Positions 4,709 through 27,272 of a stretch of DNA of 64,000 nt are shown here, one piece after another; within the stretch, counting starts at the first letter, position 1; every line of letters begins with the position of its first letter. The notes below the pieces were generated by a model, which searched no databases, was not told the origin of the DNA, and saw only the letters and a list, made by a program, of their open reading frames with translations. Source of the DNA: an uncultured Chloroflexia bacterium (GTDB lineage: Bacteria > Chloroflexota > Anaerolineae > Caldilineales > Caldilineaceae); the NCBI GenBank assembly GCA_963698255.1, contig CAVOQD010000024.1:581072-645071 (forward strand). The letters are read 5' to 3'. Position numbers and translations under genes: made by a program.

Positions 4709-5707
4709 CTAGATCCCCAATGACGCTAGATATTCCCGATTGCGGCGTGCGCTGTCCAACGGGGCGCCCATGCCGGGCAGAATGTCCTGCTCGACTGTGA
4801 TGTAGCCGTTGTAGTCGTGTGCTTGCAGCCACGCCAGAATCGCTGCGAAATCGACGCAGCCCTGACCTAGTTCGCAGAAGACGCCATGCGCCACCGCGCC
4901 AAAATAGTCCCAGCCTTGGCGCTGCGCTTCAGCCATGATCTGCGGTTGACAATCCTTGAAGTGGACATAGCAGATCCGATCCGCCAAACGATCCATGGCC
5001 GCCAGGATGCCGTCGCAGCTTCCGGCCCCAAAGGCATAGTGGCCGGTATCGAAGACCAATCCGACCAGTGTCGGATCGGTCAGCCTCAGCAGGCGGTCCA
5101 ACTCGTCAGGCCGTTCGACGAATCCGGCGCAGTGGTTATGGACGCCGCATTGGATACCGGTCTCGTTGCGAACCGCGCTGGCCACCCGGTTGACGCCCGT
5201 CGCAAAGACGCGCCATTCCTCATCGGATAGCGCCATCGCCTCAGTCGCCCGCCCCGCGTTGGCTGTGCGAATCGGCACGGTCGCGTTGTCATCGGCCAGC
5301 ACCAGGAACGGGCGAGTCGACGATCCCAGCCGATCGGCAAGCTGCGCCATCTGGCGTGCGATCTTCAGCGCCTCGGCTTCGCCGGCGGCGTGTGCGGTCT
5401 CGTCTCTGAACGGGATACCGATGTAGGCCCCGGTGATGGTTAGGTTGCGCGAGTCGAAGGCAGCATACAGTTCATCGGGATCTGTGGGCATGAAGCCCCA
5501 ATCACCCAGCTCACTGCCGGTGTAGCCGCTCTCGACCAGTTGATCGAGCATCGTCTCATAGGTGAAGCGGTCTGCCTTTGTGCTGCCAAATTCCAGCGTG
5601 CCCCACGAGCAGGGCGCGTTGCCGACCTGGATCGTGTCGGTATTCTCTTTCATCACCGCGGGGCCTGCACCAGGCACGACGCTACGGGACTCTGTTCCGA
5701 TCGCCAT
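4709..5707 (-). CDS. iolE: xylose-isomerase-like TIM-barrel protein, IolE-like (inosose dehydratase candidate)
   Basis: 332-aa ORF. DPTLVGLVFDTGHYA, YVHFKDC, FCELGQGCVDF and YNGYITVEQD parallel B. subtilis IolE blocks (DPKLVGLLYDTGHIA, VHVHFKDV, YKGWIVVEAEQD; from memory). It lies within the iol cluster. An alternative start is MKENTD (5653). Confidence 0.6.
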   Translation of the reverse strand: MAIGTESRSVVPGAGPAVMKENTDTIQVGNAPCSWGTLEFGSTKADRFTYETMLDQLVESGYTGSELGDWGFMPTDPDELYAAFDSRNLTITGAYIGIPFRDETAHAAGEAEALKIARQMAQLADRLGSSTRPFLVLADDNATVPIRTANAGRATEAMALSDEEWRVFATGVNRVASAVRNETGIQCGVHNHCAGFVERPDELDRLLRLTDPTLVGLVFDTGHYAFGAGSCDGILAAMDRLADRICYVHFKDCQPQIMAEAQRQGWDYFGAVAHGVFCELGQGCVDFAAILAWLQAHDYNGYITVEQDILPGMGAPLDSARRNREYLASLGI

Positions 5708-5766
5708 TGATCTGCTCCTTATCTGAATTTTCCAACAGGTGATTTCTCAATTTCTTTATGATAGGC

Positions 5767-8836: not shown

Positions 8837-10743
8837 CTACAGAAAATACCGCTCCTTATCCCGCATCTCTTCCCACTCCTCACGCGCTGCATTGACCGAA
8901 TCGTATTCGCTGACCTCGGCGATGGGCACATCCCACCAGGACTCGTAGCCGGGCACGCCCAGGTAGCGGTCGTTCTCGACGTAGATGACCGTCGTGCGCT
9001 CGATGGCCTTGGCCTCTTGCAGCGCCGCGACCACGTCTTCGTAGCGTCTGGCATTCGATGACGTACGCGCCCAGGCTGCGGGCATTGGCCACCAGATCGA
9101 CCGGCAGCACCTCGACGCCATCGTAGCCGCCGTCATCGGTCGGCAGACCCTCCTCGCCGGGGAAGGCGTAGCGGGTGCCGAAGCCCTCCTGGCCCAGCGA
9201 ACGGGAGAGCGCACCGATGCTGCGATAGCCGTTGTTGTTCATGAGGACGATGGTCAGCTTCTGCTTCTCCTGGACCGAGGTGATGATCTCCTGGGCCATC
9301 ATCAGATAGCTGCCGTCGCCCAGCATCACGTAGACCTCACGCTCCGGGTCGGCCATCTTGACGCCCAGCCCGCCGGCGATCTCGTAGCCCATGCAACTGT
9401 AGCCGTATTCGAGGTGAAACTGCTTGGGATGGCGGCTGCGCCAGAGCTTGTGCATGTCGCCCGGCAGGCTGCCGGCCGCGCCGACCATGACCGCATCGGG
9501 ATCGCCGCTGTCGTTGACCGCGCCGATGAGCGCGCCCTGGAAGGGCAGTCCGCTCTCGGCCGATCTTGATGGCGTAGAGTCGGTCGACTTCGTCTTCCCA
9601 GGCCGTCGTGCAGTCGCTTGGCTTCGGCGCTGTAGCTTTCGGCCAGCCTTGAAGCCTTCCGAGCGCCCTGGACAAGCTCGTCCAGCGTGGCCCGGGCATC
9701 GCCAACCAGCGGCAGGGCTGAGTGCTTGTAGGCGTCGAACTCGGCCACGTTGATGTTGATGAAGCGCACATCCGGATGCTCGAACTGGGTCTTGCTGGAG
9801 GTGGTGAAGTCGCTGTAGCGGGTGCCGATGCCGATGATCAGATCGGCCTGTTTGGCCATGATGTTGGCCGCCGACGTGCCGGTTGCGCCCACCGCGCCCA
9901 GGCAGAGCGGATGGTCGTAGCGCAGGCTGCCCTTGCCGGCCATGGTCTCGCCCACAGGGATGCCCGTGCTGGTCGACAAAGGCTCTCAGGGCATCCGTCG
10001 GCCTCGCTGTAGTGAACGCCGCCGCCGGCGATGATCATGGGCGACTTGGCGCGCTTGATCCACTCGACGGCCTGGGCCAAGGCTCGTCTGATCGGGTCGA
10101 TTGCGGGGCACGCGCCAGACGCGCTTCTGCGAAAAGTTCGACCGGATAGTCGTACGCCTCGACCTGCACATCCTGGGGCAGACAGAGCGTGACCGCGCCG
10201 GTGTCGGCCGGGCTGGTGAGCACGCGCATGGCCTCGGGCAACGCCGTGATGATCTGCTCCGGGTCGGTAGAAGCGGTCCCAGTAGCGGCTGACCGGCTTG
10301 AAGCTGTCGTTGGCCGAGATGTCCTGGCTGTGCTCGAACTCGACCTGTTGCAGCAGGGGGGCCGTGTTGCGCCGGGCAAAGATGTCGCCCGGCAGCAGCA
10401 GCACCGGCACCCGGTTGATGGTGGCCCCCGCCGCCGCGGTCACCATGTTGGTGGCGCCGGGACCGATGGAACTGGTGCAGGCCAGCGTGCGCAGGCGATT
10501 GCTGTGCTTGGCAAAGGCCGCGGCCGTGTGGACCATGGCCTGCTCGTTGCGGGTCTGGTAGTAGCGGAAGGCGGGATACTGCTGGAGCGCCTGGCCCATG
10601 CCGGCCACATTGCCGTGGCCAAAGATGCCGAAACAGCCGGCGAAGAACTTGTGCTCGACGCCGTCTCGCTCCGTGTACTGGACGTCCAAAAATCTGACAA
10701 TGGCCTGGGCCATCGTCAGGCGAACCGTTGTGTTGTTGTCCAT
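8837..10743 (-). pseudogene. iolD: 3D-(3,5/4)-trihydroxycyclohexane-1,2-dione acylhydrolase IolD (TPP enzyme); frame broken about 7 times
   Basis: MDNNTTVRLTMAQAIVRFLDVQYTERDGVEHKFFAGCFGIFGHGNVAG..., GIPVGETMAGKGSL, GDGSYLMMAQEIITSVQEKQKLTIVLMNNNGYRSIG and ...WWDVPIAEVSEYDSV... are spread over ORFs 9838..10743, 10035..10379, 9986..10774, 9326..9979, 9337..9771, 8880..9488 and 8837..9214. Confidence 0.85.
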
Positions 10744-10763
10744 TTGGCTCCTGTTTGAATGAT

Positions 10764-10852
10764 AAGGGTGACAAGGTGACAGGGTGACAAGGTGAATTCT
10801 CAGAACATTGAACTGTTCACCTCAGCACCCTGTCACCCGGTCCCCTTGTCAC
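10764..10852. repeat. inverted-repeat hairpin element, 'GTGACA' family (copy 2)
   Basis: Left arm AGGGTGACAAGGTGACAGGGTGACAAGGTGAA (10764-10795), right arm TTCACCTCAGCACCCTGTCACCCGGTCCCCTTGTCAC (10816-10852). Confidence 0.8.
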
Positions 10853-11858
10853 GTCTTCTCCTGATAGATCGCCGGCATCTCCGGCTCGTCGACCGCCACG
10901 GCAACCCGCTGCGGGCCGACTGGATGCAGGCGTCCGCGATGATCATGGCGATGTAGCCGTCCCATGTCGACGGACCGGTTTGTTCCCCGGCGAGCAGACT
11001 GCGCACCCAGGCCGCCGCCTCTTCAATGTAGGCGATCTCAAAACGTTGCAGCCAGTCCTCCTCGATGGTCTGCGACAGCGCGCCGGATTGGCGCATCTGC
11101 ATCTCTTGCAGGCCGCCGACCGCCACCGATGCCTGTTCGCCGACCACTTCGACACGCACCTCGTAGCCGTAGCCTGCATCGGCGTTCAGCTCGATGATCG
11201 CCAACGCACCATGGTCGAAGGCCATCTCGATCACGGCCAGCCGGCAGGTGTCGGGCAGAGCCGGATCGGCGGGGATGGTGCGGGTGTAGACGCTGGTCAC
11301 TTGGCCGCCCAGCAGCCAGCGGGCCGAGTGGATGTCGTGGACCGCCGAGTTGATGATCACGTCGTCAACGGTGCGCAGCGTTTCGCCGCCCAGATTGGTG
11401 TGGGTGCCGCGAAAGTAGAGCGGCCTGCCCAGCCGCCCCGACTGCACAGCGTTGAAGATCTGTCGATGCGACGGGTCATACTCGCGCATGAATCCGAGCT
11501 GCACCAACCGCTTGCCTGCCGCCACCTCAGCCTTGACCACGCCTTCGGCCTCGGCGACGCTGGTCGCCAGCGGCTTCTCGCACAAGACCGGCTTGCCGGC
11601 GGCGATGCAGGCCGACGCCAGGCGAGCGTGGGTGCGATCCGGCGACGCAATCACCAGCGCGTCAACGTCCGGATCGGCAATCAGAGCGTCGGCGTCTGTG
11701 TAGATCTTGGCCCCGCCACATGTCGGCAGCAACGACCGCCGCCGTGTTCCGGCTCAACATCCATGATGCCCAACCACGCGTGCCCCCGGCGTCCGCAACG
11801 CCAGATTGCGCGCATGCCGTCCACCCATGCCGCCAGTCCCGATGATGCCAATCTTCAC
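10849..11858 (-). pseudogene. iolG: inositol 2-dehydrogenase, B. subtilis IolG type (Gfo/Idh/MocA); about 4 frame breaks
   Basis: The core is ORF 10833..11732(-), with GKPVLCEKPLA, GKRLVQLGFMREYD and GPSTWDGYIAMIIADACIQSA (compare Bsu IolG GKRLVQVGFMRRYD and GPTAWDGYIAAVTTDAC). The N-terminus VKIGIIGTGGMGGRHARNL starts at GTG 11858 and needs three +1 corrections near 11770-11715. The C-terminus VAVAVDEPEMPAIYQEKT* (stop 10849) needs one more near 10895. Confidence 0.75.
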
Positions 11859-11904
11859 CACTTCACCTGTCACCTTGTCACCCCCTCACCCTGTCATCTT
11901 TTCT

Positions 11905-12933
<1,029 letters not shown>

Positions 12934-12953
12934 TCTGTGTCACCTCAGTAGGT

Positions 12954-13037
12954 GAAGAACGAAGATCGAAGATCGGGCAGAGTTGCTCTCCGACGTCAAG
13001 AGATCCTTGTTCTTCGTTCTCCAATCTTTGTTCTTCG
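12954..13037. repeat. inverted-repeat hairpin element, 'GAACAAAGATCGAAGA' family (copy 2)
   Basis: Left arm GAAGAACGAAGATCGAAGATCG (12954-12975), right arm GATCCTTGTTCTTCGTTCTCCAATCTTTGTTCTTCG (13002-13037). Confidence 0.8.
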
Positions 13038-13935
13038 TTAGTACAACGGCAACCGCTCATCCACCCCCACATACGTCTCCTTGACCCAGGTCGCCTTGGG
13101 GTCGTCCTGATTGGCCAGGCTTTGGGCGCTGCCGGCCAGGACGTTGAGATAGTAGGTGGTGTAGCCGGGCGCGCTGGTGACCGGGTGATAGCCTTCGGGC
13201 ACGAGCACGGCGTCGCCGTCGCGGGCGACAGACCAGGGCGTCGATGGGGATAGCCGGCCTGGTGCAGCGGCGAACCCTTCGTCGGTGTAGACGCGCTGGT
13301 AGGCGTAGCCGTCGGGCTTGTCGATTCGGTAGTAGTAGACCTCTTCCAGGTCGGCCTCGATCAGATTGCCGTCGGCGTCCTCGATGTGGACGTCATGCTT
13401 GTGGCCGGGATAGCTGCTCCAGTTGCCGGACGGCGTGTAGACCTCGACCAGCACCAGCCGGTGGACGGGCGAGCCGGGCGGCAGCAGATCGTTGATCTGG
13501 CGGCTGACGTTGTCGCCGCCGCGGATGGCGATGGGCACATCTTCGGGCATGATCAGCCATGGATCGTGGTCCTCATCGGTCGGCACCCAGGTGACCGCAA
13601 ACTCGCCGCCCTGCCTCCGCCGTGACGGTGAACTCGGTTCGCCGCGGCAGGTAGAGCGCATGGGCCGCCGACGTGAAGACGTTCTCTCGCCCGCCGATGC
13701 CCTGCCAATCGCCGCGTGACGAGGTCACGCTGTAGACGCCGGTCAGGTTGACGATGGCCAGTTCGTTCTCGCCGGTCTCGAAGGACCAGCTTTCCCCGCT
13801 CGCCAGCCGTCGAACCTGGAACGAAATGTAGTCCCAGCCGGCCTGTTCAGGCGTGACGGACAGGATCAGGTTCGGGTCGTCGGCTGCGCCGGGTTCGAGG
13901 GGGTGAACAAGGATGTTTTCGCTTGTGTATTGCAT
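13038..13935 (-). pseudogene. iolB: 5-deoxy-glucuronate isomerase IolB; at least 1 frame break (about 13625)
   Basis: N-terminal half MQYTSENILVHPLEPGAADDPNLILSVTPEQAGWDYISFQVRRL... is in ORF 13573..14037 (start ATG 13935). The C-terminal half ...SSYPGHKHDV...AVLVPEGYHPVTSAPGYTTYYLNVLAG... is in ORF 13038..13661. A compensated shift pair near 13230-13260 is possible. Confidence 0.8.
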
Positions 13936-13968
13936 GGGTTGCACTCTCCTATCCGATCTATCTACGTC

Positions 13969-14047
13969 GTAGGTGCGGTTTGCAACCGCACGATTTTCGA
14001 ATAACCAAGCTATTCGTGCATGCGCTATGGGTTGCAAACCGCACCTA
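13969..14047. repeat. inverted repeat of a 'GTAGGTGCGGTTTGCAACC' unit
   Basis: GTAGGTGCGGTTTGCAACCGCAC (13969-13991, which itself contains the 8-bp stem GTGCGGTT/AACCGCAC) and its complement GGTTGCAAACCGCACCTAC (14029-14047). It lies between the LacI stop and the iolB start. Confidence 0.75.
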
Positions 14048-14072
14048 CAATTGTCACTGCATCATCACCCTG

Positions 14073-15110
14073 TCACCTGTCCCTGTCCCCGCCGGTCGAC
14101 CTGCGCACAATCAACTCGCCCGGCAGAATCGTTTGCTCTCGCCGTGCCGCCGGATCCGGAGCTCCGATCAGTTCCAGGATGAGGCGCATGGCCGTCTCGC
14201 CCATCTGGCGACGTGGCTGACGCAGCGTGGTGAGCGGCGGTTCGAGGTAGGCGGCGAATTCGACGTCGTCGAAGCCGGTGATGGCGATCTCGTCGGGGAT
14301 GCGATGGCCCCGGTTGTGCAGCACGGTCAGCGCGCCGGTGGCCATGGTGTCGTTGTAGCAGCAGATGGCATCAGGCGGTGCGCCCCAGAGTTGATCGGCG
14401 GCGGGCAGCAGTTTCTCGGCGGCCTCGACGCCGCCGTCAAAGCGACCGTTCTTGCCGATGACAAATAGTTCGGGTTCAAGACCGGCAGCCAGCAGGGTGT
14501 CGCTCCAAGCCTGGCGGCGCTCGATCAGCGTCTTGCCGCCGTCCGCGTTGCCGATGTGGGCGATGCGACGATAGCCGCGGTCGATGAGATGCTGCACGAC
14601 CTTACACATGCCGCCGTAGTCGTCGTGGAGGACGGCGTGCATGTTGTCGCCGTCGGCCTGGGTGTTGATCAGCACGATGGGGATGCCGGTCTCCTGCAGC
14701 AACTCGGCGTACGGATTGCCGACCATGCTTGACGCCACGATGATGCCGTCCACCTGGCGGCTCTGGAAGTGGCGCACGACTTCGAATTCACGTTGGGGAT
14801 TGAGGGTGGCCGTCGCCAGCAGGATGCTGTAGTTGTTGCGCAACGCCTCATGCTCCAGCCCTTCAGCCACTTCGCTGTTGAACGGATCGGCCAGGTTGTT
14901 GATGACAAGGCCCACGGTGTAGCTGCGTTGCGAAACCAGACCCCGCGCAATCATGCTGGGCGTGTAGCCCATTTCGCGGGCGATGGCGCGGATACGCGCG
15001 CGGGTCTCCTCGGCCATGCGGCCTTCGCCACGCAATGCACGGCTCACCGTCGGATGGGAGACGCCGGCAAGCTGGGCGATATCCTTGATGGAGACACGTT
15101 TTTTGGCCAC
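14073..15110 (-). CDS. LacI-family transcriptional regulator (probable iol cluster regulator)
   Basis: ORF 14073..15218(-). The HTH VSIKDIAQLAGVSHPTVSRALRG is near the N-terminus. Start placed at GTG 15110 (VAKKRVSIKD). A periplasmic-binding-like sugar domain follows. The last codons overlap a GTGACA-family arm. Confidence 0.8.
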   Translation of the reverse strand: MAKKRVSIKDIAQLAGVSHPTVSRALRGEGRMAEETRARIRAIAREMGYTPSMIARGLVSQRSYTVGLVINNLADPFNSEVAEGLEHEALRNNYSILLATATLNPQREFEVVRHFQSRQVDGIIVASSMVGNPYAELLQETGIPIVLINTQADGDNMHAVLHDDYGGMCKVVQHLIDRGYRRIAHIGNADGGKTLIERRQAWSDTLLAAGLEPELFVIGKNGRFDGGVEAAEKLLPAADQLWGAPPDAICCYNDTMATGALTVLHNRGHRIPDEIAITGFDDVEFAAYLEPPLTTLRQPRRQMGETAMRLILELIGAPDPAARREQTILPGELIVRRSTGGDRDR

Positions 15111-15189
15111 GGGCGGTTCGTTTTGGCAACTGAAGCGGGCTCGAAAATCGACAACGAATTGGACGAGAAACTGCATCGGGGAAGCAAAA

Positions 15190-15207
15190 TGCGCACACGT
15201 ATGCGCA
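15190..15207. promoter_or_regulatory. candidate LacI-type operator (near-palindrome)
   Basis: TGCGCAcACGTaTGCGCA is palindromic at 16 of 18 positions, centred on ACGT, 80-97 nt upstream of the proposed regulator start. A second inverted repeat, CGATTG-n7-CAATCG, lies at 15223-15241. Confidence 0.3.
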
Positions 15208-15386
15208 AAGTGTATCACGGAGCGATTGCGCTTGTCAATCGTTTTTGTAAGATCATGCCTTCATTCGGAATGTCTCGGCCGAGCCTGTCGGCTAGATTGT
15301 GCCAGCCCCAGACGTAGGCTTTGAATACCTGGTCGAAGGTGAGTGAGTTGATCGGGGATTGAGTTGATTGGTTGTTGATGGTTTGG

Positions 15387-18047
15387 CTAGTTTGTGAGTA
15401 GCGAGCGTACCGCATTAAAGTCCGGCCCTTGCGGCATGGTAAAGAGGCAGGCGCCGTTACTTCTCGCTGCCCACAGTTCTCCGATGGCTCTCTTTTCCTC
15501 CGAATCTGCATTGCTCCACAAATGGGCACCCTTGTATTCAACCACGAGATAGCGTCCATCGATCAGTTTGCATACAAAGTCAGGATAGAATCTGTCAGTC
15601 GAAGTCTGTAGCCAGAACGAATGCCTTGGACGTCGCTCCAGGTTTCGCACCCAGGTTTCCACCTCCGGCTGCGTCGCAAGGAAGTGTGCGTAGCGCTTCT
15701 CTTCCTCCGTATCGAAGTCGCCGATTTCGGGATAGTAGTGCTTCGGCATCTCCAAAGAACCACGGTAGAGGCGGTTATATGGATATTCGTTATGTGGGTA
15801 GGTGAAACAGGATTCCGGCGTGACGACGACTTCCATACCGTCGAGAAGATTGGGCGACAGCAATTGCCGCATCGCAGTGGTTCGTTGCGCGTCGCTACAC
15901 GTTTTCATGTGGGCAACGATAGCGTTTAGCAATCGGTACTTGTCGCCAACCAAGGCTCCCTGACTGATACCCCGTTCTCGTTCCAGGTTCTGCAAGAGTT
16001 TGACCAAGAACGCGCTCGACTCATCCAACGGTATCTCGGCACGATTGGGCAGACGCAAGTCCAGCCACCGAGCCAATTCAGCGATTGTCCAATCCGCGTT
16101 GGCGTCAAGAAGCGCCATCTGTTCATGCAAAGCGCCGATGAAGCGTGTCTTGACTTTGCCGCCTGCATCGACATCAATTTCTCCCGTTACATATTCTGTC
16201 TGGGTTAAGGAATACTCTTGTTCATCAAGCATGGGCATGCAAGTGGTAAGCAATCCCGGCATCACTTCGAGCAGATGAGTCTCCTCCAATTGCTCGAATA
16301 TATCGCCCTGCCGAATTGACAACACTGGAATGCTGAAAGAATGCCCCCTGTTAGAAGGTGGACGGCGATCTGGCTGGTAGAGTTGCGACCGTTCAAAGAG
16401 TTGAACGACTGCGGTCTTGTCTCGCGGGGAATCGAAACACCCTTGCAATGCCGCAAGATCAGCCTCGTTCATGGGGCCTGTGAATGTCAAGCTGCTCGAT
16501 TTGGGTTCGTAGATGATCTTTGCCGCGGTTGTTGGCGGCAAAGATCCCAACGAAGGCGGCTGCGAAACATTGGTCGTGTGCTTTGGCGGACCTGGCTCCA
16601 CAACCTGGTGCAAGTCTTGCCAGAGTGGCAGACCGGTAACCATGTCTTCGCGAGACTGACCCTGCTCGATGAGCTGCTCCGCCTCCTGACGCTCAAAGCC
16701 ATTCTGGACTAGGGCATCAGCGAGTGACGATGCCACGCCGGCAAACGCTGTGGACGAGGCGACGAACGCATATGCGCAGTTTAGTTCTTCGTTTGCCCGG
16801 CGTTTTGCATAGGGCATACGTAGCACCCGACCCAGTATCTGTTCGACGGCCGTGCTCGACCTTGATTCTGCGACCGAGCAAAGCACGTAGGCAAAAGGAC
16901 AGTCCCAACCTTCCCTCAGCGCCTGAACCGTGATGACAAATCGTACTGGGCATTTGGGGTCGTTGAGGTCGACGCCGTCGAGTTGGCGGTCAGTGCCTGT
17001 TGCACGGGCGATCTGCTCCTCGGGGATTCGCCAGTCATCAATCAGGCTCTGCTCCACCACATCAATGTTGAGGCTCTCGCGATTCTTGTAGCTCTTTTCA
17101 GCCTGCAGCAACATGATCGGTCGGATGTATTCGCTGCCATGAAGTCGTTCTGCAACGGCCAATTCTTCGAGATGAGCGCGCAAATTGACGGCGTCGCCAA
17201 GAAGCTGCCGCCAATCGCTGCGCGTCGCCAATCGAATGGGCAGCTTGATCATCTCCTCGGCCTTGAGTTCGGCAGCGGAGACGCTGTAGAGCACATTGCT
17301 GGCATGATTTCCGGACGCTGGGGTGGCCGTAAGCTCAAGAATACAGGCCGGATCGAAACGGGCCAGGGTCTCAAACGAGAGATCGGTGCGAGCGTTGTGG
17401 GCTTCGTCCACAATCACGGCAGGACGACGCAGCCGCAACACGTTCTCCAGCGAACGGTGTGGCGTTCCGTCCTCGAAACGTACGAGTCTCTCCAATACGG
17501 ACGGCGGCAGATTGTCGAAATGGGTCATCAGGCTGCCGGCGTCATCGTAGACTTTGCGACCCTCGGTCTCCTCGACGCGGAATGCCTGCATGGTGGCCAC
17601 AATCACCGTGGTCGATGTGTCCAATGTGGCTCGGGTCAGAGAGAGTGCTTCCCCCAAGTTGAGCACTGTGACGGAACCGCAACTGCTTTCCAGCGCCTGT
17701 CGATACGGGTGACGTTTGTCTTTTAGCGCGTCTATAGTCTGTGTCAGAATGGCGTTGGACGGCACAAGCCAAAGCACCACGGAATGCTCGTTGTGGAGGA
17801 GGTCATGCTCTGTAATGCCAATGGCGTGCGCGGCGATGAGCGTCTTGCCGCCGCCGGTTGGGATGCGGATACAGGCATAGGGCAGACCGTGCAGGCCCGG
17901 TGCTGGGCGATACGAGATGCCGCGGCTGAACGTGTCGCGTGTCGTTAGGTAGAATGCAGCGTCGGCGTCGCCCTCTTGAACGCAACGTTGATAGTAGCTC
18001 CGCAATACATCGAGGGCGCGCTGCTGATATTCCTTGAGCGCAAGCAT
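15387..18047 (-). CDS. res: type III restriction enzyme Res subunit (SF2 helicase + C-terminal PD-(D/E)xK nuclease)
   Basis: Uninterrupted 886-aa ORF with Walker A RIPTGGGKTLIA, DEAH box VIVDEAHNA, ILELTATP, a late helicase motif EGWDCP, and the C-terminal nuclease-like YPDFV...LVVEYKG. The start ATG is 2 nt after the hicA stop. Confidence 0.85.
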   Translation of the reverse strand: MLALKEYQQRALDVLRSYYQRCVQEGDADAAFYLTTRDTFSRGISYRPAPGLHGLPYACIRIPTGGGKTLIAAHAIGITEHDLLHNEHSVVLWLVPSNAILTQTIDALKDKRHPYRQALESSCGSVTVLNLGEALSLTRATLDTSTTVIVATMQAFRVEETEGRKVYDDAGSLMTHFDNLPPSVLERLVRFEDGTPHRSLENVLRLRRPAVIVDEAHNARTDLSFETLARFDPACILELTATPASGNHASNVLYSVSAAELKAEEMIKLPIRLATRSDWRQLLGDAVNLRAHLEELAVAERLHGSEYIRPIMLLQAEKSYKNRESLNIDVVEQSLIDDWRIPEEQIARATGTDRQLDGVDLNDPKCPVRFVITVQALREGWDCPFAYVLCSVAESRSSTAVEQILGRVLRMPYAKRRANEELNCAYAFVASSTAFAGVASSLADALVQNGFERQEAEQLIEQGQSREDMVTGLPLWQDLHQVVEPGPPKHTTNVSQPPSLGSLPPTTAAKIIYEPKSSSLTFTGPMNEADLAALQGCFDSPRDKTAVVQLFERSQLYQPDRRPPSNRGHSFSIPVLSIRQGDIFEQLEETHLLEVMPGLLTTCMPMLDEQEYSLTQTEYVTGEIDVDAGGKVKTRFIGALHEQMALLDANADWTIAELARWLDLRLPNRAEIPLDESSAFLVKLLQNLERERGISQGALVGDKYRLLNAIVAHMKTCSDAQRTTAMRQLLSPNLLDGMEVVVTPESCFTYPHNEYPYNRLYRGSLEMPKHYYPEIGDFDTEEEKRYAHFLATQPEVETWVRNLERRPRHSFWLQTSTDRFYPDFVCKLIDGRYLVVEYKGAHLWSNADSEEKRAIGELWAARSNGACLFTMPQGPDFNAVRSLLTN

Positions 18048-18049
18048 GG

Positions 18050-18274
18050 CTATCCGGCCTCAAAAAGGTTGCGTGGGAGTCCTGACTGGCGAATGATGGA
18101 GCGCAGCGTGCCGGCGCGCAGCTCTTTGTGTTCGGGAACAGGTACGGTTATCGATCCGTTCGTCAGCCGCATCTGCATGATGACGTGACTGCCGCGCTGT
18201 CGTGCTTCGACGAAACCGTGCTCGGCCAAGATGGCGCAGACCTCGCGCCCCGAGAGTACGCGCAACCTAGGCAA
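18050..18274 (-). CDS. hicA: HicA-family toxin (mRNA interferase)
   Basis: 74 aa. MPRLRVLSGREVCAILAEHGFVEARQRGSHVIM...VPVPEHKELRAGTLRSIIRQSGL matches the HicA/YcfA pattern. The TTG start overlaps the hicB stop by 8 nt. Confidence 0.8.
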   Translation of the reverse strand: MPRLRVLSGREVCAILAEHGFVEARQRGSHVIMQMRLTNGSITVPVPEHKELRAGTLRSIIRQSGLPRNLFEAG

Positions 18275-18497
18275 CGGGCACCCCCACGCCTACCTGGGTG
18301 ATGAACACTTCACCATGCAGTCGTGACTCGATCTCATTTGCCGAGGCCGTCTCAAAGAATAGTTCGATGGCTTCGATCAAGTTGGTCCGCGCCTCTTCAA
18401 CCGACTGCCCCTGGCTGGCAATGTCGAGTTCGGGACAGAGCGCCACGTACCAATCTTCGTCGCGTTCGATGATGGCCGTAAATTGCTGGTAGGTCAT
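18267..18497 (-). CDS. hicB: HicB-family antitoxin (UPF0150 fold, no appended DNA-binding domain)
   Basis: 76 aa. FTAIIERDEDWYVALCPELDIASQGQSVEEARTNLIEAIELFFE is typical of the HicB N-terminal domain. GGGAGA lies 7 nt upstream of the ATG. Confidence 0.75.
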   Translation of the reverse strand: MTYQQFTAIIERDEDWYVALCPELDIASQGQSVEEARTNLIEAIELFFETASANEIESRLHGEVFITQVGVGVPVA

Positions 18498-18563
18498 GTG
18501 CGTTCTCCCATCGCCGGTTACTGATCCGGCCTCTTGAAAGGCCTAGACTTCGTGACTGGCAGG

Positions 18564-20202
18564 CTATAGGTTCAACTCATACGGGATCTGCTTGAAGACA
18601 ATTCGTTCTTGCTGCAACCGCGCCGAACCGATACGGCAACTTGTGCCGTAGACAATTCGTTCGCCGTCAAAGTCCGTTGGCCATGGTAATGAGGCCAACA
18701 CCTGACGCGTCAGTGCATTGCCGCCGCTCGGCGACTTATCGGCAAGGATGCCATTGTAGAGTAGGTAGACGGCGCGTCCACCGGTCATGCCCAGCAAGGG
18801 CGATGGCTGTGGGCCATTTGGGTGCAATGGCTGACCAGTTTCAGCGAAAAATACGTATTGGGCCAAGTCGGAAAACGATACATCAGAACGGATCTGGCCC
18901 TGTTCGTCGTAGAGGGTAGGACCGATGGTGTTGTAACGGAAACCGCCGCCCAAAGCAGCCTCGTTCTTGGCCTTGCCGCCCTGTGCTGTCCACGAGTAGC
19001 CGTCAATCGCTCGTTGTAGGCGGACTGCCGTGATGTTGTTGGCGATTTCCGGTTCCATTTCGACGAGGATGAAGCGACGGGGCGGCTCGCTCGGCTCACT
19101 TGCGTTCATCTTTAGAACGGCGTGGCCGGTTGTGCCACTGCCCGCAAAGGAATCCAGCACGAGGTCCCCCGGATCCGAAGCAATGTGGATGACTCGCTCG
19201 ACAAGCGTTGATGGTTTTGGAGTTACGAATACACTCTCGGAACTCTCAAACTGGCATATCTGGACCAGTTCCTTTTTGGCGAACTGTGTGTGTCCCACTT
19301 CCCCATACGACCAGAAGGTTTGAGGGACTCGCCCTCTCTTAACCTCTGTAAGAAAGCGTTTCAGCTGTGGGGTGCTATTGCCATCACGTCCCCACCAGAT
19401 TCGATTGTCAAGATCGAGTTCTTCGAGCCGCTGCTTTGAAACCGAATAGTAGCGCCCCCGTGGGGGATGTGGAATGGTCCGACCAGATGGTGTCGCTACG
19501 CTATAAGTTCCCTCACTGTAGAAATTTCGAGCAGAGAGATCGCTAGATTTCCATGGGCCGCGACTGTCGGCATCTGGATTTGTGTACGCCGCATCTTGGG
19601 AGGATGTTCGGGCTAATAGGTTTGGAACCCACGCGGTTTTGCTTCGAGCGAAGCAGATAATGTAATCGTGATCCTCCGACAGATATTTTGCGGAGTTCTT
19701 TGGCGAGTACACTTTTTGCCAGATCACTGTGGCGACGAAATTGGCGGCCCCAAATACTTCATCTAGGAGCATCCGAGCATGGTGCACTTCGTTATCATCA
19801 ATGCTCATCCACAGGCTGTCATCCTCGCGCAGAAGTTCTCGAAGTAGCACCAATCTTGGGTACATCATGCAGAGCCATTTGTCGTGGCGAGAGAGGTCTT
19901 CGGCCTCTTTGCCTACCACCTTGCCCAGCCAAGCACGCATGGCCGGGCTGTTGACATTGTCGTTGTAGACCCAGCTTTCGTTGCCTGTGTTATACGGTGG
20001 ATCGATGTAAATGCACTTAACTTGGCCGGCATAGCGGGGCAGCAATGCCTTGAGCGCCAACAGGTTGTCGCCCTCAATGAGCAAATTACCTGCGTTTGGG
20101 TCACCCACGCTACGCGTTTTCATCCTCCTGCAAGAGGTGAAGGGGCACATCTTTATGATGTTCGACGACGGCTTCTTTGCCGATCCAGTTCAGAGTTGGC
20201 AT
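18564..20202 (-). pseudogene. mod: type III R-M Mod subunit (beta-class N6-adenine/N4-cytosine DNA methyltransferase); one frame break near 20122
   Basis: ORF 18564..20150(-) carries IYIDPPYNTGN (motif IV) upstream of VLDSFAGSGTTGHAV (motif I). A conserved-looking N-terminus MPTLNWIGKEAVVEHHKDVPLHLLQEDE is in another frame starting at ATG 20202. Removing one A from GAAAAC (about 20122) joins it to TRSVGDPNAGNLLIEGDNLLALKALL. Confidence 0.85.
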
Positions 20203-20288
20203 GTTGGCTCGCAATACCCGCAAGTGGTTCGATTTCAGCACAGATCATTCTACCACATTTTTCGGGCGGCCTGTTGCTGGGACACTTC

Positions 20289-20308
20289 CTGCTTTCGCGC
20301 GAAAGCAG
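20289..20308. terminator. perfect 20-bp palindrome just downstream of the AI-2E transporter gene
   Basis: CTGCTTTCGCGCGAAAGCAG lies 7 nt after the stop at 20315. There is no clear T-tract, so terminator function is tentative. Confidence 0.3.
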
Positions 20309-20314
20309 CCTGAA

Positions 20315-21505
20315 TCAGCCACCGCCTTCGTCGGCAACTTCCTCCTGGGGATCCGACCCGGAATCCACCTCCACAAACGGCGGCAGATCCAGCATCTTGC
20401 GCCAGGCATAGCCGCCCAGCAGTTTGATGGTCGCCACCACCGGCGCCGCCAACACTGCGCCCAGAATGCCGGCCAGCGATGCGCCCATGAGCACGGCCAC
20501 CATGATGACCAGCGGGTGCAGATCGAGCGCGTCGCCAACGACGCGTGGTACCAGCACAGTGTTTTCTACCTGTTGGATGACCAGCATGGCGACGCCGACG
20601 ATCAGCGCATGCCAGAGCGGTGACAGCCCCCAGTAGTTTTCGGGCTGAAAGATCGCCACCAGAATGGCCGCCAATGCGCTGATGATCGGACCGATGACGG
20701 GCAGGAATTCGAGCAGCCCGGCCAGCGCGCCCAGAGCCAGCGAATTGCTCACGCCCAGCACGGTCAGCACCAGCGAGACAGCGAGACCGATGGTCAGCGC
20801 CAGGATGACCTGGCCGCGCAGGTAGGCGTTCCAGATGTTGACGAAACTACCGATCAGCCGGTCGGCATCCTGGCGATAGCCGGTGTCGTGGGCCATGTTG
20901 CTGATGGCCGGGCCGATCTTGGGTGCGTCGCGCACCAGGTAGATCGAGAGTGCGAAGACCAGAACGGCCAGGCCGAACCAGGTGATGGTCGCCTGGGTGA
21001 GTTGCGTGGCCAGAGAACCGCCCATGCTGAAGGCAGGGCTGGCCAGATTGGATATCTGGCTGATCACAGTCTGAGCGTCGATCCCACCGATCGCGGTACC
21101 TGGGTCGAATTGGAGCGGGCCAATAACGATCACCCTGCCCAATGCCTGTTCGGCCAGCAATTGGCCGTTGATCAGCGCACGGTCAAACAGGTCGGGCAGC
21201 TTGGTGTAAAGCTCGATCACCTGATCGACGGCAACGACGCCCAGCGCAATGCTTCCGGCTACAAACACGAGGATGATCACCAGATAGACCAGCAAGATCG
21301 AGCGTCCCCGGCTGAGCCCTGTGCGCCGCTGCAAAAAATTGATCACGGGGTTGAGCAGATAGGCCAGAATCATGGCCGTGACAATCGGCGCGATCAGCGT
21401 GCGGAATTTCCAGACCGCCAACGCCGTCAGGATCAGCGCGGCCGACGCCACAATCGCTTTGGTCGTTCGATTCCACGGCGGTGAGTTGTAGTCGGATAGT
21501 GGCAT
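20315..21505 (-). CDS. AI-2E family transporter (PerM/UPF0118)
   Basis: Uninterrupted 396-aa ORF, polytopic, with the characteristic C-terminal part LEFLPVIGPIISALAAILVA...HPLVIMVAVLMGASLAGILGAVLAAP. Confidence 0.8.
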   Translation of the reverse strand: MPLSDYNSPPWNRTTKAIVASAALILTALAVWKFRTLIAPIVTAMILAYLLNPVINFLQRRTGLSRGRSILLVYLVIILVFVAGSIALGVVAVDQVIELYTKLPDLFDRALINGQLLAEQALGRVIVIGPLQFDPGTAIGGIDAQTVISQISNLASPAFSMGGSLATQLTQATITWFGLAVLVFALSIYLVRDAPKIGPAISNMAHDTGYRQDADRLIGSFVNIWNAYLRGQVILALTIGLAVSLVLTVLGVSNSLALGALAGLLEFLPVIGPIISALAAILVAIFQPENYWGLSPLWHALIVGVAMLVIQQVENTVLVPRVVGDALDLHPLVIMVAVLMGASLAGILGAVLAAPVVATIKLLGGYAWRKMLDLPPFVEVDSGSDPQEEVADEGGG

Positions 21506-21545
21506 GGTTGGGTGCTCGGTGTGGTCGGGAGGAGAGAGCGGGGCC

Positions 21546-21633
21546 GTTGGGAAGTGGGGTAGCGGGGGAATTCGAGCGATCTCTTGACGTTCCCCACCAC
21601 CCCACTTCCCAACAGCCCCACTTCCCTACAACC

Positions 21634-21637
<4 letters not shown>
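21546..21637. repeat. inverted-repeat hairpin element, 'GGGAAGTGGGG' family (copy 2)
   Basis: Left arm GTTGGGAAGTGGGGTAGCGGGGGA (21546-21569), right arm TCCCCACCACCCCACTTCCCAACAGCCCCACTTCCCTACAACCCTAC (21591-21637). Confidence 0.8.
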
Positions 21638-24090
<2,453 letters not shown>

Positions 24091-24095
24091 TTTAC

Positions 24096-25176
24096 CTACT
24101 CTTCCCCCCGCATCAGACGCAAATAGCTCTCATAGCGCTCGCCATCGATCTCACCGGCTTCGACTGCCGAGCGGACTGCACAGCCCGGCTCATGATCATG
24201 GGTGCAGTTGGGGAACTTGCATTGGTGGAGAAACGGCTCCATCTCGATGAAATAGAAGCCCATGTCGGCCGGATCGATGTCATAGAGACCCAGTTCACGG
24301 ATGCCGGGCGTGTCGGCCACGAAGGTCTCGTCGCCGAAGGGCAGGGCAATCAGATGGGCGGTGCGGGTCGTGTGTTTGCCCTTGTTCAAGAAGTCGCGCA
24401 GATCGCCGGTCTCCAGATGCAGATCGGGATGGATGGTGTTGAGCAGGCTGCTTTTGCCGACGCCGCTGGGGCCGGTGACGACCGTGATACGGTCGGTCAG
24501 CAATTCCTCCAGTTCGTCGATGCCAAGACCTGTCTCCGCGCTGGCGTAGATGACGCGATAGCCGATCTGTTCGTAGGTGGCGAACAATGCCTTGGCCTGC
24601 TCGATCTCGGCAAGATCGATCTTGTTGACGCAGATGATCGCTGGAATCTCTGCGAACTCGGCAATGACCAGAAAGCGGTCGAGCATGCGCAGATGGGGCT
24701 CGGGATGGACGATGGAAAAGACGATGAGCGCCTGGTCCGGGTTGGCCAGGATCACGTCTTCGGCCAGTTGGCTGGCGCCGGGCTGCTGCCGGCTGAGCAC
24801 GCTCTTGCGTTCTTCGATGCGCTCGATCTTGCCGCCTGTTTTCGCCGTCCGGCACCAACCAGACCCGGTCACCGACCGCGACCAGCGTGTCCACCGATTT
24901 TTCCTGAAGAAGGCGACGCCGGATCTCGCATAGGCGAACGTGGCCAGGCGCCTCCGGATCGCTTTTGGCATCGGTCTGCACATCGTAGTGATGGCCTAGG
25001 GCACGGATCACGATGCCATGGATCAAGTTCGACGACGCCTTCTTCGGTTTGGATTTGCGTCGCTTCTTGGCAATTAATTCTGTCTGCTCGTAGGCGGCGT
25101 CTTCGAAGGCCTCGTCGTAGTCTTCGTAGGCGAGTGTATCTTCTGGATCGAGGTCAGGCGTTCGGTTGGTTGGCAA
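24096..25176 (-). pseudogene. rsgA: ribosome small-subunit-dependent GTPase A (RsgA/YjeQ); 1 frame break (about 24840)
   Basis: The N-terminal OB part is in ORF 24295..25176 (TTG start, GAGGAG 8 nt upstream). The GTPase and zinc-finger part is in ORF 24096..24983: [41 protein letters not shown]. Confidence 0.85.
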
Positions 25177-25242
25177 GCAGTTACTCCTCTGAGATCTTCC
25201 GCGTCAAGTCGATGCTGGGATCGAGCCGTTGTTTGTCGTTCG

Positions 25243-25272
25243 AGTGTATCAAGACGAACAAATGTTTGTCAA
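25243..25272 (-). promoter_or_regulatory. candidate promoter for rsgA
   Basis: On the minus strand: TTGACA (25272-25267), 18 nt spacer, TACACT (25248-25243), about 65 nt upstream of the rsgA start. Motif match only. Confidence 0.3.
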
Positions 25273-25392
25273 TACGTGAGCCAACACGGGTGCATCACAA
25301 ACTGTGAGCGGGGGATCCCCATGCCGGGGACGGTCCGGTCCAATTCGGTCATACGAAGCGCTCGTGTACCGTCTCCAGCACGTTTTGCTCCG

Positions 25393-25539
25393 AATTTGAA
25401 GTGGGTGTGCTCAAAATGAGTTGGGCACGCCGGGGCAGCCGCAGCCTGAGCCTGTCGAAGGCGTAGGCGGGTCGATCCGGCTTCGACAAGCTCAGCCCGC
25501 GCTGTCCTCTCAACTGGTTATGAACACACCCATTTCAAA
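25393..25539. repeat. nested palindromic element (outer 30-nt arms enclosing a 'GAGCCTGTCGAAGG' family hairpin)
   Basis: The outer arms ATTTGAAGTGGGTGTGCTCAAAATGAGTTG (25393-25422) and CAACTGGTTATGAACACACCCATTTCAAAT (25510-25539) are imperfect complements. The inner arms are CTGAGCCTGTCGAAGG (about 25445-25460) and GCTTCGACAAGCTCAG (about 25479-25494). Confidence 0.7.
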
Positions 25540-25591
25540 TGGGTCCAACCAAGACGGCATCTGCGATATTGGTTTGTTGGTTTCACAACCC

Positions 25592-25630
25592 TTGAAACCA
25601 TTCAGTAAAGCTGATATACTGAAGTTCAGT
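25592..25630 (+). promoter_or_regulatory. candidate vapBC promoter with overlapping palindromic operator
   Basis: TTGAAA (25592-25597), 17 nt spacer, TATACT (25615-25620). The perfect palindrome ACTGAA-G-TTCAGT (25618-25630) overlaps the -10/start region, as expected for antitoxin autorepression. Confidence 0.4.
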
Positions 25631-25668
25631 CATCGGTATTTCTGAATATTGGACAGGAGTCAATCGAC

Positions 25669-25932
25669 ATGACAGGATCGATTTCGCTACAGCTTGCCCA
25701 ACGCGGTGTCCTCACGTTGCCCAAGGCGTTGCGTGATCAATACAACTTGCAGCCCGGCGATCATCTCACCTTGATTGATATGGATGGTATCTTTTTGCTC
25801 TCGCCACGCCATTCGCAGGTTGACTACTTGGCCGATCAAATTAGCGGTGCTCTGCTCGAACAAGGTGATTCCTTAGAGGCTATGCTGGCGGTTCTGCGCG
25901 AGGAGCGGGAACGCTATGATTCGGAAGCCTGA
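25669..25932 (+). CDS. vapB: AbrB/MazE/SpoVT-type antitoxin (VapB-like)
   Basis: 87 aa. The N-terminal swapped-hairpin pattern LQLAQRGVLTLPKALRDQYNLQPGDHLTLIDMDG is present, and the gene overlaps the downstream PIN gene by 17 nt. Confidence 0.7.
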   Translation: MTGSISLQLAQRGVLTLPKALRDQYNLQPGDHLTLIDMDGIFLLSPRHSQVDYLADQISGALLEQGDSLEAMLAVLREERERYDSEA

Positions 25933-26365
25933 TCTCTTTCTTGACACCAGCGCCCTTTTTGCCGGAGTTTGGTCTGCCGAGGGCGGCGGTCAACATCTGC
26001 TGAAATTGGGCGAGGTCGATGCCGTCCAACTGGTGGTGAGCAGTCAGGTTCTGGTTGAGATGGAGCGAGCGCTGCGCAAGAAAGCGCCTCATCAGTTGGC
26101 GAATTTGGCTGTGCTACTTGAGTGCAGCGGTGTCAAGGTTGTGGAACGCCCTACGCAATCCATGGTCGAGACGTGCCTGCATTTGACCGGATACGAAAAT
26201 GACGCCGTTGTCATCGCTGCGGCCTGGTCGGCGGAATCTGACTATTTCGTGACGTTGGATCAGCGTCATTTTCTGGGCAATGGGCCATTGGCTTCAGCAT
26301 TGCCGTTCCCGCTTGGGACGCCGGGAGACTGCCTTGCCTGGCTGCGCCGGCGGTGGACTCGCTAG
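25916..26365 (+). CDS. vapC: PIN-domain toxin (VapC-like ribonuclease)
   Basis: 149 aa. It has an N-terminal acidic motif LFLDTSAL, DAVVIAAA and FVTLDQRHF, which fits the typical PIN acidic-residue layout. Confidence 0.7.
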   Translation: MIRKPDLFLDTSALFAGVWSAEGGGQHLLKLGEVDAVQLVVSSQVLVEMERALRKKAPHQLANLAVLLECSGVKVVERPTQSMVETCLHLTGYENDAVVIAAAWSAESDYFVTLDQRHFLGNGPLASALPFPLGTPGDCLAWLRRRWTR

Positions 26366-26463
26366 TACAATCTGGCGTGAATCGTCAGATAGCGTGACCT
26401 ACGTTTCTCTATCGATATTGACGCCGTCGTGTACTCAGCCACCACGGCGGAGAGGACAGCGAT

Positions 26464-26575
26464 AGACCGCGGATCCGGCTGATAAATGCCGATACTGTCG
26501 AAAAATCAGATTGTCTTCGCCTAACCCGCTGAATTCGCGGTCCATCTCGTAGTCACTCCGACAAGTTTGTCGGCG
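26464..26575. repeat. intergenic repeat, 'CCGCGGAT ... GTCACTCCGACA' family (copy 2)
   Basis: Contains GACCGCGGATCC, GATAAATG, ATTCGCGGTCC and GTCACTCCGACAAGTTTGTCGG. It lies between convergent vapC and maf. Confidence 0.6.
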
Positions 26576-26615
26576 ACAAGGTCGCGAACAATCAATGGTT
26601 GGCGGGGACTGACTA

Positions 26616-27272
26616 TCAACGGCGGCAACAGACGAAGGCGGTGTGCTCTTCGCAGATGCCGGCCACCGGTGTTTCGATGGTGATCCCGAACGCGGCCAGC
26701 AGGTCGCTTAGATCGCCCAGCGGCAAGCCCATAACGCCGGTGAAACAGCCGTCGAGTTTTGCAACCGGGGCAAATCCCGGATGCTGAATGGCGTAGGCGC
26801 CGGCCTTGTCCATCGGGTCGCCGCTTGCGATGTAAGCCTCGATCTCCTCGTCGCTGTAGGCCCGCATGATCACAGTGGATGTGTTCAGCCGGGTTTCCTG
26901 TCGCCCGTCGTCGGTGGATCGCACGCAGATGGCGCTGTAGACCTGATGCGGCTCGGTCCGCAGCAGGCGCAGCATTCGCCCTGCATCGGCCTCATCGACC
27001 GGTTTGCCGAGCACCTGATCGCCGATTGCGACCACGGTGTCGGCTGCGATGATCAGACGAGACTCTTCGGTCGTAAGTCCATCGCAGATGAAAGCATCTG
27101 CAACAGCCTGTGCCTTGCCCTCTGCCAGGCGCAGCACGAGTGCGGTTGGCGACTCGTTTTCCTGGGGCGTTTCGTCAATATCCGCGACACGGATCTCAAA
27201 ATCCAGCCCCATCTGATGGAGAAATGCGCTGCGTCTTGGGCTGGCTGATCCAAGTATAATGGTTGGTTGCAT
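26616..27272 (-). CDS. maf: Maf-like nucleoside triphosphate pyrophosphatase
   Basis: ORF 26616..27338(-). Start placed at MQPTIILGSASPRRSAFLHQMGLDFEI (ATG 27272). Typical blocks GSASPRR, ADTVV, GKP and DKAGAYAIQ are present. Confidence 0.8.
   Translation of the reverse strand: MQPTIILGSASPRRSAFLHQMGLDFEIRVADIDETPQENESPTALVLRLAEGKAQAVADAFICDGLTTEESRLIIAADTVVAIGDQVLGKPVDEADAGRMLRLLRTEPHQVYSAICVRSTDDGRQETRLNTSTVIMRAYSDEEIEAYIASGDPMDKAGAYAIQHPGFAPVAKLDGCFTGVMGLPLGDLSDLLAAFGITIETPVAGICEEHTAFVCCRR

Follow-up and report, generated by a model that had tools for sequence, protein, structure and literature searches.

A HicBA toxin-antitoxin cassette in the mod-res junction of a type III restriction-modification operon from an uncultured Chloroflexia bacterium

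A stretch of 64,000 nucleotides from an uncultured Chloroflexia bacterium of the Caldilineaceae (assembly GCA_963698255.1, contig CAVOQD010000024.1, positions 581,072 to 645,071; hereafter the window) carries a type III restriction-modification (R-M) operon in which a complete hicB-hicA toxin-antitoxin (TA) pair stands between the methyltransferase gene mod and the restriction gene res. The order is mod, a 66-nt spacer, hicB, an 8-nt overlap, hicA, a 2-nt gap and res, and these spacings, claimed in an earlier sequence-only reading of the window, are matched by the open reading frames (ORFs) on the minus strand. Counted from the res stop codon to the mod ATG, the operon spans 15387-20202. We interpret the pair as an embedded class 2 hicBA cassette that is probably co-transcribed with the type III operon and possibly acts as its back-up or stabiliser, a reading to which we give a probability of about 0.6. 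Seen from the side of the cassette the arrangement is unusual, whereas from the side of the operon it is not, and the TA pair in the mod-res gap is a fresh example of a known habit, namely embedded defence cargo.

The claim that this is a type III mod-res system with a complete hicB-hicA in its junction is backed by family matches in both PADLOC and Pfam. Mod matches the PADLOC model MTase_III PDLC03644 (E = 8e-193, model positions 19-540 of 542) and Pfam N6_N4_Mtase (E = 2.6e-40), and has the beta-class motif order, with motif IV (DPPY, in IYIDPPYNTGN) ahead of motif I (FAGSGTT, of the pattern FxGxG, in VLDSFAGSGTTG). Res matches PADLOC REase_III PDLC03650 over its full length (positions 1-875 of 898, E = 3e-146) as well as Pfam ResIII, and contains PTGGGKT, VIVDEAHNA and a C-terminal YPDF...VVEYKG; every motif that had been quoted for the two proteins is found in its claimed place. 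In an alignment with 25 homologues, the PTGGGKT, DEAH, TATP, QxxGR, PD (822-823) and ExK (837-839) elements of Res are invariant. The curated type III equivalog models of NCBIfam give partial matches far under their cut-offs, and the top Res homologues in a protein search are only 50-56% identical and scattered over phyla. As in the classical type III systems EcoP1I and EcoP15I, Mod is a beta-class methyltransferase encoded upstream of Res, and Res joins superfamily 2 (SF2) helicase motifs to a C-terminal PD-(D/E)xK nuclease motif; the window system departs from them in that 516 nt with two additional genes lie between mod and res. Type III cleavage consumes ATP and requires two unmethylated sites in inverse orientation, and the asymmetric site becomes hemimethylated. 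A SNF2-linked four-gene type III variant was ruled out, given that an AI-2E transporter gene stands upstream of mod.

The mod gene had been described as a single span, 18564-20202, but this measures 1639 nt, no multiple of 3, and the frame opened by the ATG at 20202 stops at 20112-20110, a break that had not been flagged for this locus. The conserved Mod N-terminus (MPTLNWIGKEAVV...) begins at this ATG, the N-terminus of the short 5' segment agreeing with the conserved MPTLDWIGKKAVV... start of the family, and the long ORF from 20150 lies in another frame. The interruption falls after codon 30 and consists of an extra A in the A-run at 20117-20120. With one A fewer, the two segments are joined in frame into a Mod of 545 aa that is colinear with its homologues, and the first 55 residues of this restored protein align gap-free to the N-termini of eleven of them. 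Two breaks of the extra-base type also occur in pcrA of the same window (at 23454 and 23153), where a 97%-identical metagenome contig, designated L081, has no extra base and stays in frame. Because the pcrA breaks are of the same type and one A fewer restores a colinear Mod, the break in mod is probably an assembly indel, which would leave the R-M system intact. L081 cannot settle the point, since at the mod A-run it reads AA and has five further small deletions within 150 nt, and at least four of its mod 5' deletions would disrupt reading where the window frame is open and homologous. Phase variation of mod was ruled out, as known phase-variable tracts are much longer than four A.

HicA matches Pfam HicA_toxin from end to end (E = 9e-19, model positions 1-58 of 58, above the gathering cut-off), carries the GSH motif at residues 28-30, of which His30 is the conserved catalytic His, and has PDB matches to the solved HicA structures 1whz, 5yrz, 4c26 and 6g26. 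The identity of HicB rests on other evidence because its Pfam matches are sub-threshold only (UPF0150, 0.004; HicB_lk, 0.013). It matches PDB entry 2yzt (T. thermophilus TTHA1756) at E = 8.5e-5, and its relatives, which number in the thousands, are 72-79 aa long, the at least 120 that were listed being 73-89% identical. NCBI and JGI annotate several of them as HicB family antitoxin, those so annotated by NCBI being 76-78% identical. [quoted passage not shown] A Foldseek search with this model returned 2yzt/TTHA1756 as the top match (probability 1.0, template modelling (TM) scores 0.57/0.64) and the putative antitoxin 3k6q as the second. No helix-turn-helix or ribbon-helix-helix domain was found in HicB by the Pfam search or in the AF2 model.

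By size, gene order and overlap, the window pair is the class 2 hicBA of Gerdes (Gerdes 2024, mBio, PMC10865869), not one of the classical autoregulated classes 3 and 4. Class 2 pairs have hicB followed by hicA, a HicB of 60-90 aa without a DNA-binding domain, a HicA of ~74 aa, and overlapping genes that imply translational coupling; the window copy differs in having no promoter match in its 66-nt upstream spacer. According to the same source, class 2 hicBA has never been tested experimentally, and its regulation is unexplained since HicB has no DNA-binding domain. The TTG start of hicA and the 8-nt overlap recur in seven of the eight free-standing cassettes that were read, the eighth (G031) having another start and a different overlap. 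When hicB and hicA were compared with four free-standing copies, the nonsynonymous distance (pN) was 0.13-0.22 and the synonymous distance (pS) 0.60-0.94, at which synonymous sites are near saturation. Toxin and antitoxin genes alike are intact and conserved.

The arrangement is not peculiar to this contig. L081, an independent metagenome contig, has the same mod-hicB-hicA-res order; its identity to the window is 97% overall and 99.6% over the mod-res stretch. In G001, which represents another species of the same genus, a scar remains. It keeps the operon upstream region with ~14 codons from the start of mod; next come ~40 nt of the mod 3' end, the spacer, hicB codons 1-60 and ~20 codons from the end of res, ahead of an intact manA. 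The mod-hicB junction is therefore present in three assemblies (window, L081 and the G001 scar) and the hicA-res junction in two. Chimeric junctions or a contig-unique arrangement had been named as possible flaws, and neither was found; with the order repeated in L081 and the mod-hicB junction kept in the G001 scar, the junctions are no assembly artefact. An island with hicB already beside mod thus predates the split between the species of the window (G000) and G001, and has been eroded since in one lineage. Two further genomes of the genus have no R-M genes at this site; G003 has the AI-2E gene, a 132-aa ORF and manA, and in G004 manA directly follows the AI-2E gene. The island does lie between the AI-2E transporter gene and a LacI regulator gene, as the sequence-only reading had placed it, and it is lower in G+C than its flanks (52-59% against 60-68%), a contrast in the claimed direction that is smaller than the hand counts had suggested. 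That an ancestor of the genus acquired the operon horizontally, at a site between the AI-2E transporter gene and manA, is the best explanation, as judged from the empty sites in G003 and G004, the lower G+C, and the Res homologues at 50-56% identity scattered over phyla.

To place the cassette among its relatives, 100 loci with close hicB relatives were collected (20 look-ups and 80 from a metagenome scan). In 96 of them hicA adjoins hicB, and in none of the 100 does this mod/res family occur within the flanks examined. Across this sample, the class 2 hicBA cassette appears as a normally free-standing, highly mobile module. The opposite sampling, from the side of the operon, took in 74 species-level genomes that have a related Res and in which mod and res are both on the contig. 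The gap between mod and res is at most 30 nt in 49 of these, 36 of which fall between -4 and +3 nt, so that mod-to-res coupling is the family norm; nine have gaps of 31-199 nt, and the other 16 have gaps of 200-3700 nt that hold same-strand ORFs of at least 40 aa. A plain arrangement, with 1-15 nt between mod and res, is found in four annotated plasmid loci of the Res family, and in G008, a complete genome from another genus of the family, mod and res genes encoding proteins 50-57% identical to those of the window overlap without an insert. A database search for mod-hicBA-res synteny, as the earlier reading had advised, thus comes back empty among the cassette relatives but reveals cargo in 16 of the 74 type III loci, and since this cargo includes two other TA pairs, one of them HicA-type, the arrangement cannot stand as the essentially undescribed one that it had been presented as.

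The cargo list consists of those 16 loci plus L073, which fell outside the 74. A DUF4258/DUF2283 TA pair, packed with 1-4-nt overlaps, occupies the slot in L018, and a pair of DUF1902 (HicB-like) and HicA in L076. L023 has a lone DUF2283, and L058 and L073 have ParE/RelE. Other cargo comprises PD-(D/E)XK GxxExxY proteins; Fic, RhuM and DinD/Bro-N proteins, which match PADLOC PDC-S04, PDC-S05 and PDC-S13, respectively; and ABC-ATPase cassettes, the ATPase of which matches PADLOC HEC-03B and NsnB. The last are seen in Poribacteria (L053, L058, L060 and L062) as a 3.5-3.7-kb cassette between mod and res, with an AAA_15/DUF3696 ABC ATPase (HEC-03B/NsnB-like) and two further ORFs, of 340-388 aa and 227-239 aa, that have no family match and are candidate uncharacterised defence partners; in L058 a ParE toxin gene is also part of it. 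At L017 (6001-9508) and L048 (6001-9825) the Res match is 3.5-3.8 kb long instead of 2.6 kb, which suggests an insertion (intein, intron or insertion sequence (IS)) within res itself.

Defence genes nested inside Hma, BREX, DISARM and type I R-M systems have been used as a discovery method (Payne et al., bioRxiv 10.1101/2024.01.29.577857). Type III R-M was outside the systems analysed there, and HicA is not mentioned in the main text. The window locus resembles these cases in that an autonomous defence-type module is nested, in the same orientation, in a system based on DNA modification; its cassette is flanked by the genes of a known system, shares their strand and is free-standing elsewhere. 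The slot cargo of the relatives likewise includes that study's PDC-S04 (Fic), PDC-S05 (RhuM), PDC-S13 (DinD) and HEC-03B/NsnB-like ABC ATPases. The difference is that the host system here is type III. A second parallel is PrrC, an anticodon nuclease lodged within the type Ic EcoprrI (hsdMSR) locus and described as an "R-M guardian" (PMC12707154). There too the gene of an RNA-cutting toxin lies between modification and restriction genes of an ATP-dependent R-M operon. PrrC, however, has no sequence relation to HicA and no separate antitoxin, being silenced by the R-M complex and freed by the T4 Stp peptide, whereas HicA has a dedicated HicB. A survey of HicA contexts lists 14 genetic contexts, an R-M operon not being among them (PMC10865869). 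In the literature searched, we found no description of TA pairs between type III mod and res, an absence that is no proof.

The junctions of the operon are compatible with a single transcript. No minus-strand terminator-like site was found in the mod-hicB or the hicA-res junction, and hence no intrinsic terminator before res, which the sequence-only reading would have taken as evidence against one operon. Promoter consensus has no good match in either junction and none in the 66-nt spacer, whereas the nearest free-standing cassettes have a TTGATT-17-TATACT promoter ~55 nt upstream of hicB, and -10-like boxes lie upstream of many others. Ahead of mod, the extended -10 element TGGTAGAAT is present as claimed when read from the sequence, and it is kept in the G001 scar as AAAATGTGGTAGAATGA; a -35 match is absent nearby, hence the site is not listed by the consensus promoter scan. 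The further claim that res has no independent Shine-Dalgarno is too strong, as GAGG lies 10 nt upstream of its ATG. Downstream of res by 180 nt, the minus strand has a hairpin (TGCGCATACGTGTGCGCA then TTTTGCTT, 15190-15207) that could be the operon terminator.

On the mod side, the boundary of the cassette can be placed no more exactly than ~15 nt from the hicB ATG. Homology of the 66-nt spacer to the 5' untranslated region (UTR) of free-standing cassettes was rejected, shuffles giving p values of 0.04-0.93, and a conserved 5'-UTR hairpin was rejected because 87 distinct cassettes differ too much in their upstream regions to support one. The 10-nt sequence GAGGCCGGAT (minus strand) forms an exact direct repeat, with one copy in the mod-hicB spacer (18524-18533) and the other at the end of hicA (18052-18061). 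The repeat was rejected as a target-site duplication since the res-side copy is native hicA sequence (G031 has GAGACCGAAT then the same TAGCC), and is either chance or micro-homology.

In the reading that we favour, hicBA would be transcribed within one mod-hicB-hicA-res message from the promoter with the extended -10; a single message is suggested by the common strand, the tight junctions and the spacers free of terminator and promoter consensus. Translation of hicA would be coupled to that of hicB through the 8-nt overlap, and res would be re-initiated or coupled after hicA, as normally after mod in this family, with the GAGG perhaps helping or replacing re-initiation. If it behaves as HicAB and other type II TA systems are known to, the pair would travel with the R-M genes and be selected together with them. 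Should operon expression collapse, by phage shut-off or loss of the island, general TA biology predicts that the labile HicB would decay and the HicA RNase would arrest the cell. The outcome would be a second-line module, serving as an abortive-infection back-up or as post-segregational stabilisation.

Several observations weigh against this. A weak promoter-like TGGACG-16-TACAAT lies within mod (18780-18753) and could drive hicBA independently, and the GAGG could likewise allow Res to be initiated independently. In L081 an IS fragment lies upstream of mod, and the 5' region of the gene shows six small deletions; if real, these would mean that the R-M system is decaying in that strain. The G001 scar records an island that was lost despite its TA pair.

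The first alternative is that a mobile hicBA landed as a neutral passenger in the mod-res spacer, one of few points in a dense operon to tolerate an insertion, and that it persists by its own addiction and is expressed from a promoter in the 3' end of mod, with no role in restriction or in Res expression. We consider this somewhat unlikely. The site at 18780-18753 would supply such a promoter and the GAGG would free res from its new neighbour; all 100 relatives sampled have a free-standing cassette, and the slot cargo is heterogeneous, all as expected of a passenger. Less easily accommodated are the same-strand, 2-nt junction with res, the promoterless 66-nt spacer when the nearest free-standing copies have clear promoters, and the independent capture of TA pairs in the same slot in L018 and L076.

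A bolder proposal, which must be called doubtful, goes further than an embedded back-up or stabiliser. The mod-res junction of type III operons would be a general, selected cargo slot like hsdS-hsdR of type I, into which HicBA is wired to guard the operon, firing once a phage or a deletion has silenced it. With neither a promoter of its own nor a DNA-binding domain, the pair would depend for its antitoxin supply on R-M transcription, and translation of the toxin would gate Res. If so, the unannotated ORFs of the slot would be new defence genes, for instance those in L002 (90 aa) and L063 (251 aa) and the ABC-ATPase partners of 340-388 aa and 239 aa in L053, L058, L060 and L062.

It is distinctly unlikely that the frameshift in mod is real and the island is decaying. 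Mod, on which both methylation and restriction depend, would then be inactive, and with it the whole R-M system, because a type III Res cannot recognise its targets unless Mod is there; the TA pair alone would function, delaying loss of the remnant. The broken frame in the window, the additional indels of L081 in the same 150 nt with an IS fragment upstream, and the evidence from G001 that the island decays by deletion would all fit. The break is a single one in 4.8 kb, however, and of the extra-base type confirmed twice in pcrA; res (2.66 kb), hicA and hicB are uninterrupted with all family-invariant residues kept, and the L081 assembly is indel-rich throughout.

Still less probable is a role in Res dosage, by which the insert would put res behind a weakly translated gene with a TTG start and so lower or delay Res relative to Mod, for safe establishment after transfer. 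The conserved TTG of hicA, the mere 2 nt to the res ATG and mod-to-res coupling as the family norm are consistent with it, and delayed Res translation has been described for EcoP15I (review PMC12707154). Yet other slot cargo is 0.2-3.7 kb long with varied spacing to res, so that no common dosage logic is evident; res has its possible independent Shine-Dalgarno; and the idea leaves unexplained why the insert should be a TA pair rather than any small ORF. An assembly chimera wrongly joining the cassette to the R-M genes, conceivable in a 37-contig assembly of 90.8% completeness and 4.3% contamination with many indel errors, is effectively refuted by the same order and junctions in the independent L081 and the mod-hicB junction kept in a different species.

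Table 1. Coordinates of the operon features and of the adjoining manA remnant in the window
Feature	Position	Strand	Description
Candidate extended -10 (TGgTAGAAT)	20247..20255	-	44 nt upstream of mod ATG; putative function
mod 5' segment	20110..20202	-	ATG 20202, 30 codons (MPTLNWIGKEAVVEHHKDVPLHLLQEDENA), then TAG 20112-20110
mod main ORF	18564..20150	-	528 aa as listed; type III beta-class N6-adenine/N4-cytosine methyltransferase
mod-hicB spacer	18498..18563	-	66 nt; Shine-Dalgarno GGGAG 8 nt from hicB ATG; 5-bp hairpin GGCCT/AGGCC
hicB	18267..18497	-	76-aa antitoxin, short class 2 type without DNA-binding domain
hicA	18050..18274	-	74-aa toxin, TTG start, overlaps hicB by 8 nt, TAG stop; GSH motif
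res	15387..18047	-	886-aa type III restriction subunit; ATG 2 nt after hicA stop
manA remnant	15276..15374	-	5' end of mannose-6-phosphate isomerase-like gene; res-side island edge

The flanks of the island have a history of their own. The manA remnant shares 83% identity with the beginning of the intact 332-aa gene of G001, and 81% with that of G003; only its first ~100 nt are left in the window, with the ATG lost, after which the sequence jumps to a LacI/iol cluster. In the equivalent stretches that were read of G001 and G003 this cluster is missing, which makes the flank on the res side a rearrangement breakpoint as well. On the other side, L081 has a 627-bp insertion between the AI-2E gene and mod (5133-5752, ~window 20304) with a 209-aa DDE_Tnp_1 transposase fragment, which lies ~50 nt upstream of the candidate -10. 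In G001 (contig L090, 10164-10457 and 11496-12660) the 3' end of the AI-2E gene is present twice, once on the R-M scar and once in the intact gene, ~1 kb apart and with the 132-aa ORF also seen in G003 between them, which suggests that recombination replaced the upstream flank of the island there.

No att-like repeats were found flanking the island, no integrase-like ORF stood out in the flanks read, which were not scanned against families, and an Rfam scan gave no match within the island. The only tRNA call in the 17 kb from 10000 to 27000, an ARAGORN tRNA-Arg(gcg) at 11754-11835, sits in the iol cluster 3.5 kb off and is probably a false positive, with its anticodon at the unusual position 40. 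A long near-perfect hairpin between pcrA and the AI-2E gene (21515-21640), matched by miRNA models far below thresholds, is simply a long palindromic repeat. The pcrA/uvrD gene itself (21634-23954) is spread over three frames by its extra bases; in L081 it has a break of its own near 22926, and the G001 orthologue has an intein-like insert (DEDQ/C...HN/SVYRF) at a site that is empty in the window.

To a specialist in defence islands the arrangement itself will be unsurprising. It extends a known nesting rule to type III R-M, which the published survey had left out. As a copy of class 2 HicBA that apparently lacks its own promoter and has to depend on the host operon, it offers a natural experiment on this class. 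A single genus, moreover, holds the full life cycle of the island, from the intact form through a strain with an adjacent IS to a deletion scar and an empty site, a series that could help to show whether a TA pair makes the R-M island in which it is embedded more stable; in this genus loss was not prevented. Since about one locus in five of this Res family has cargo between mod and res, the junction is also a cheap place to seek anti-phage genes.

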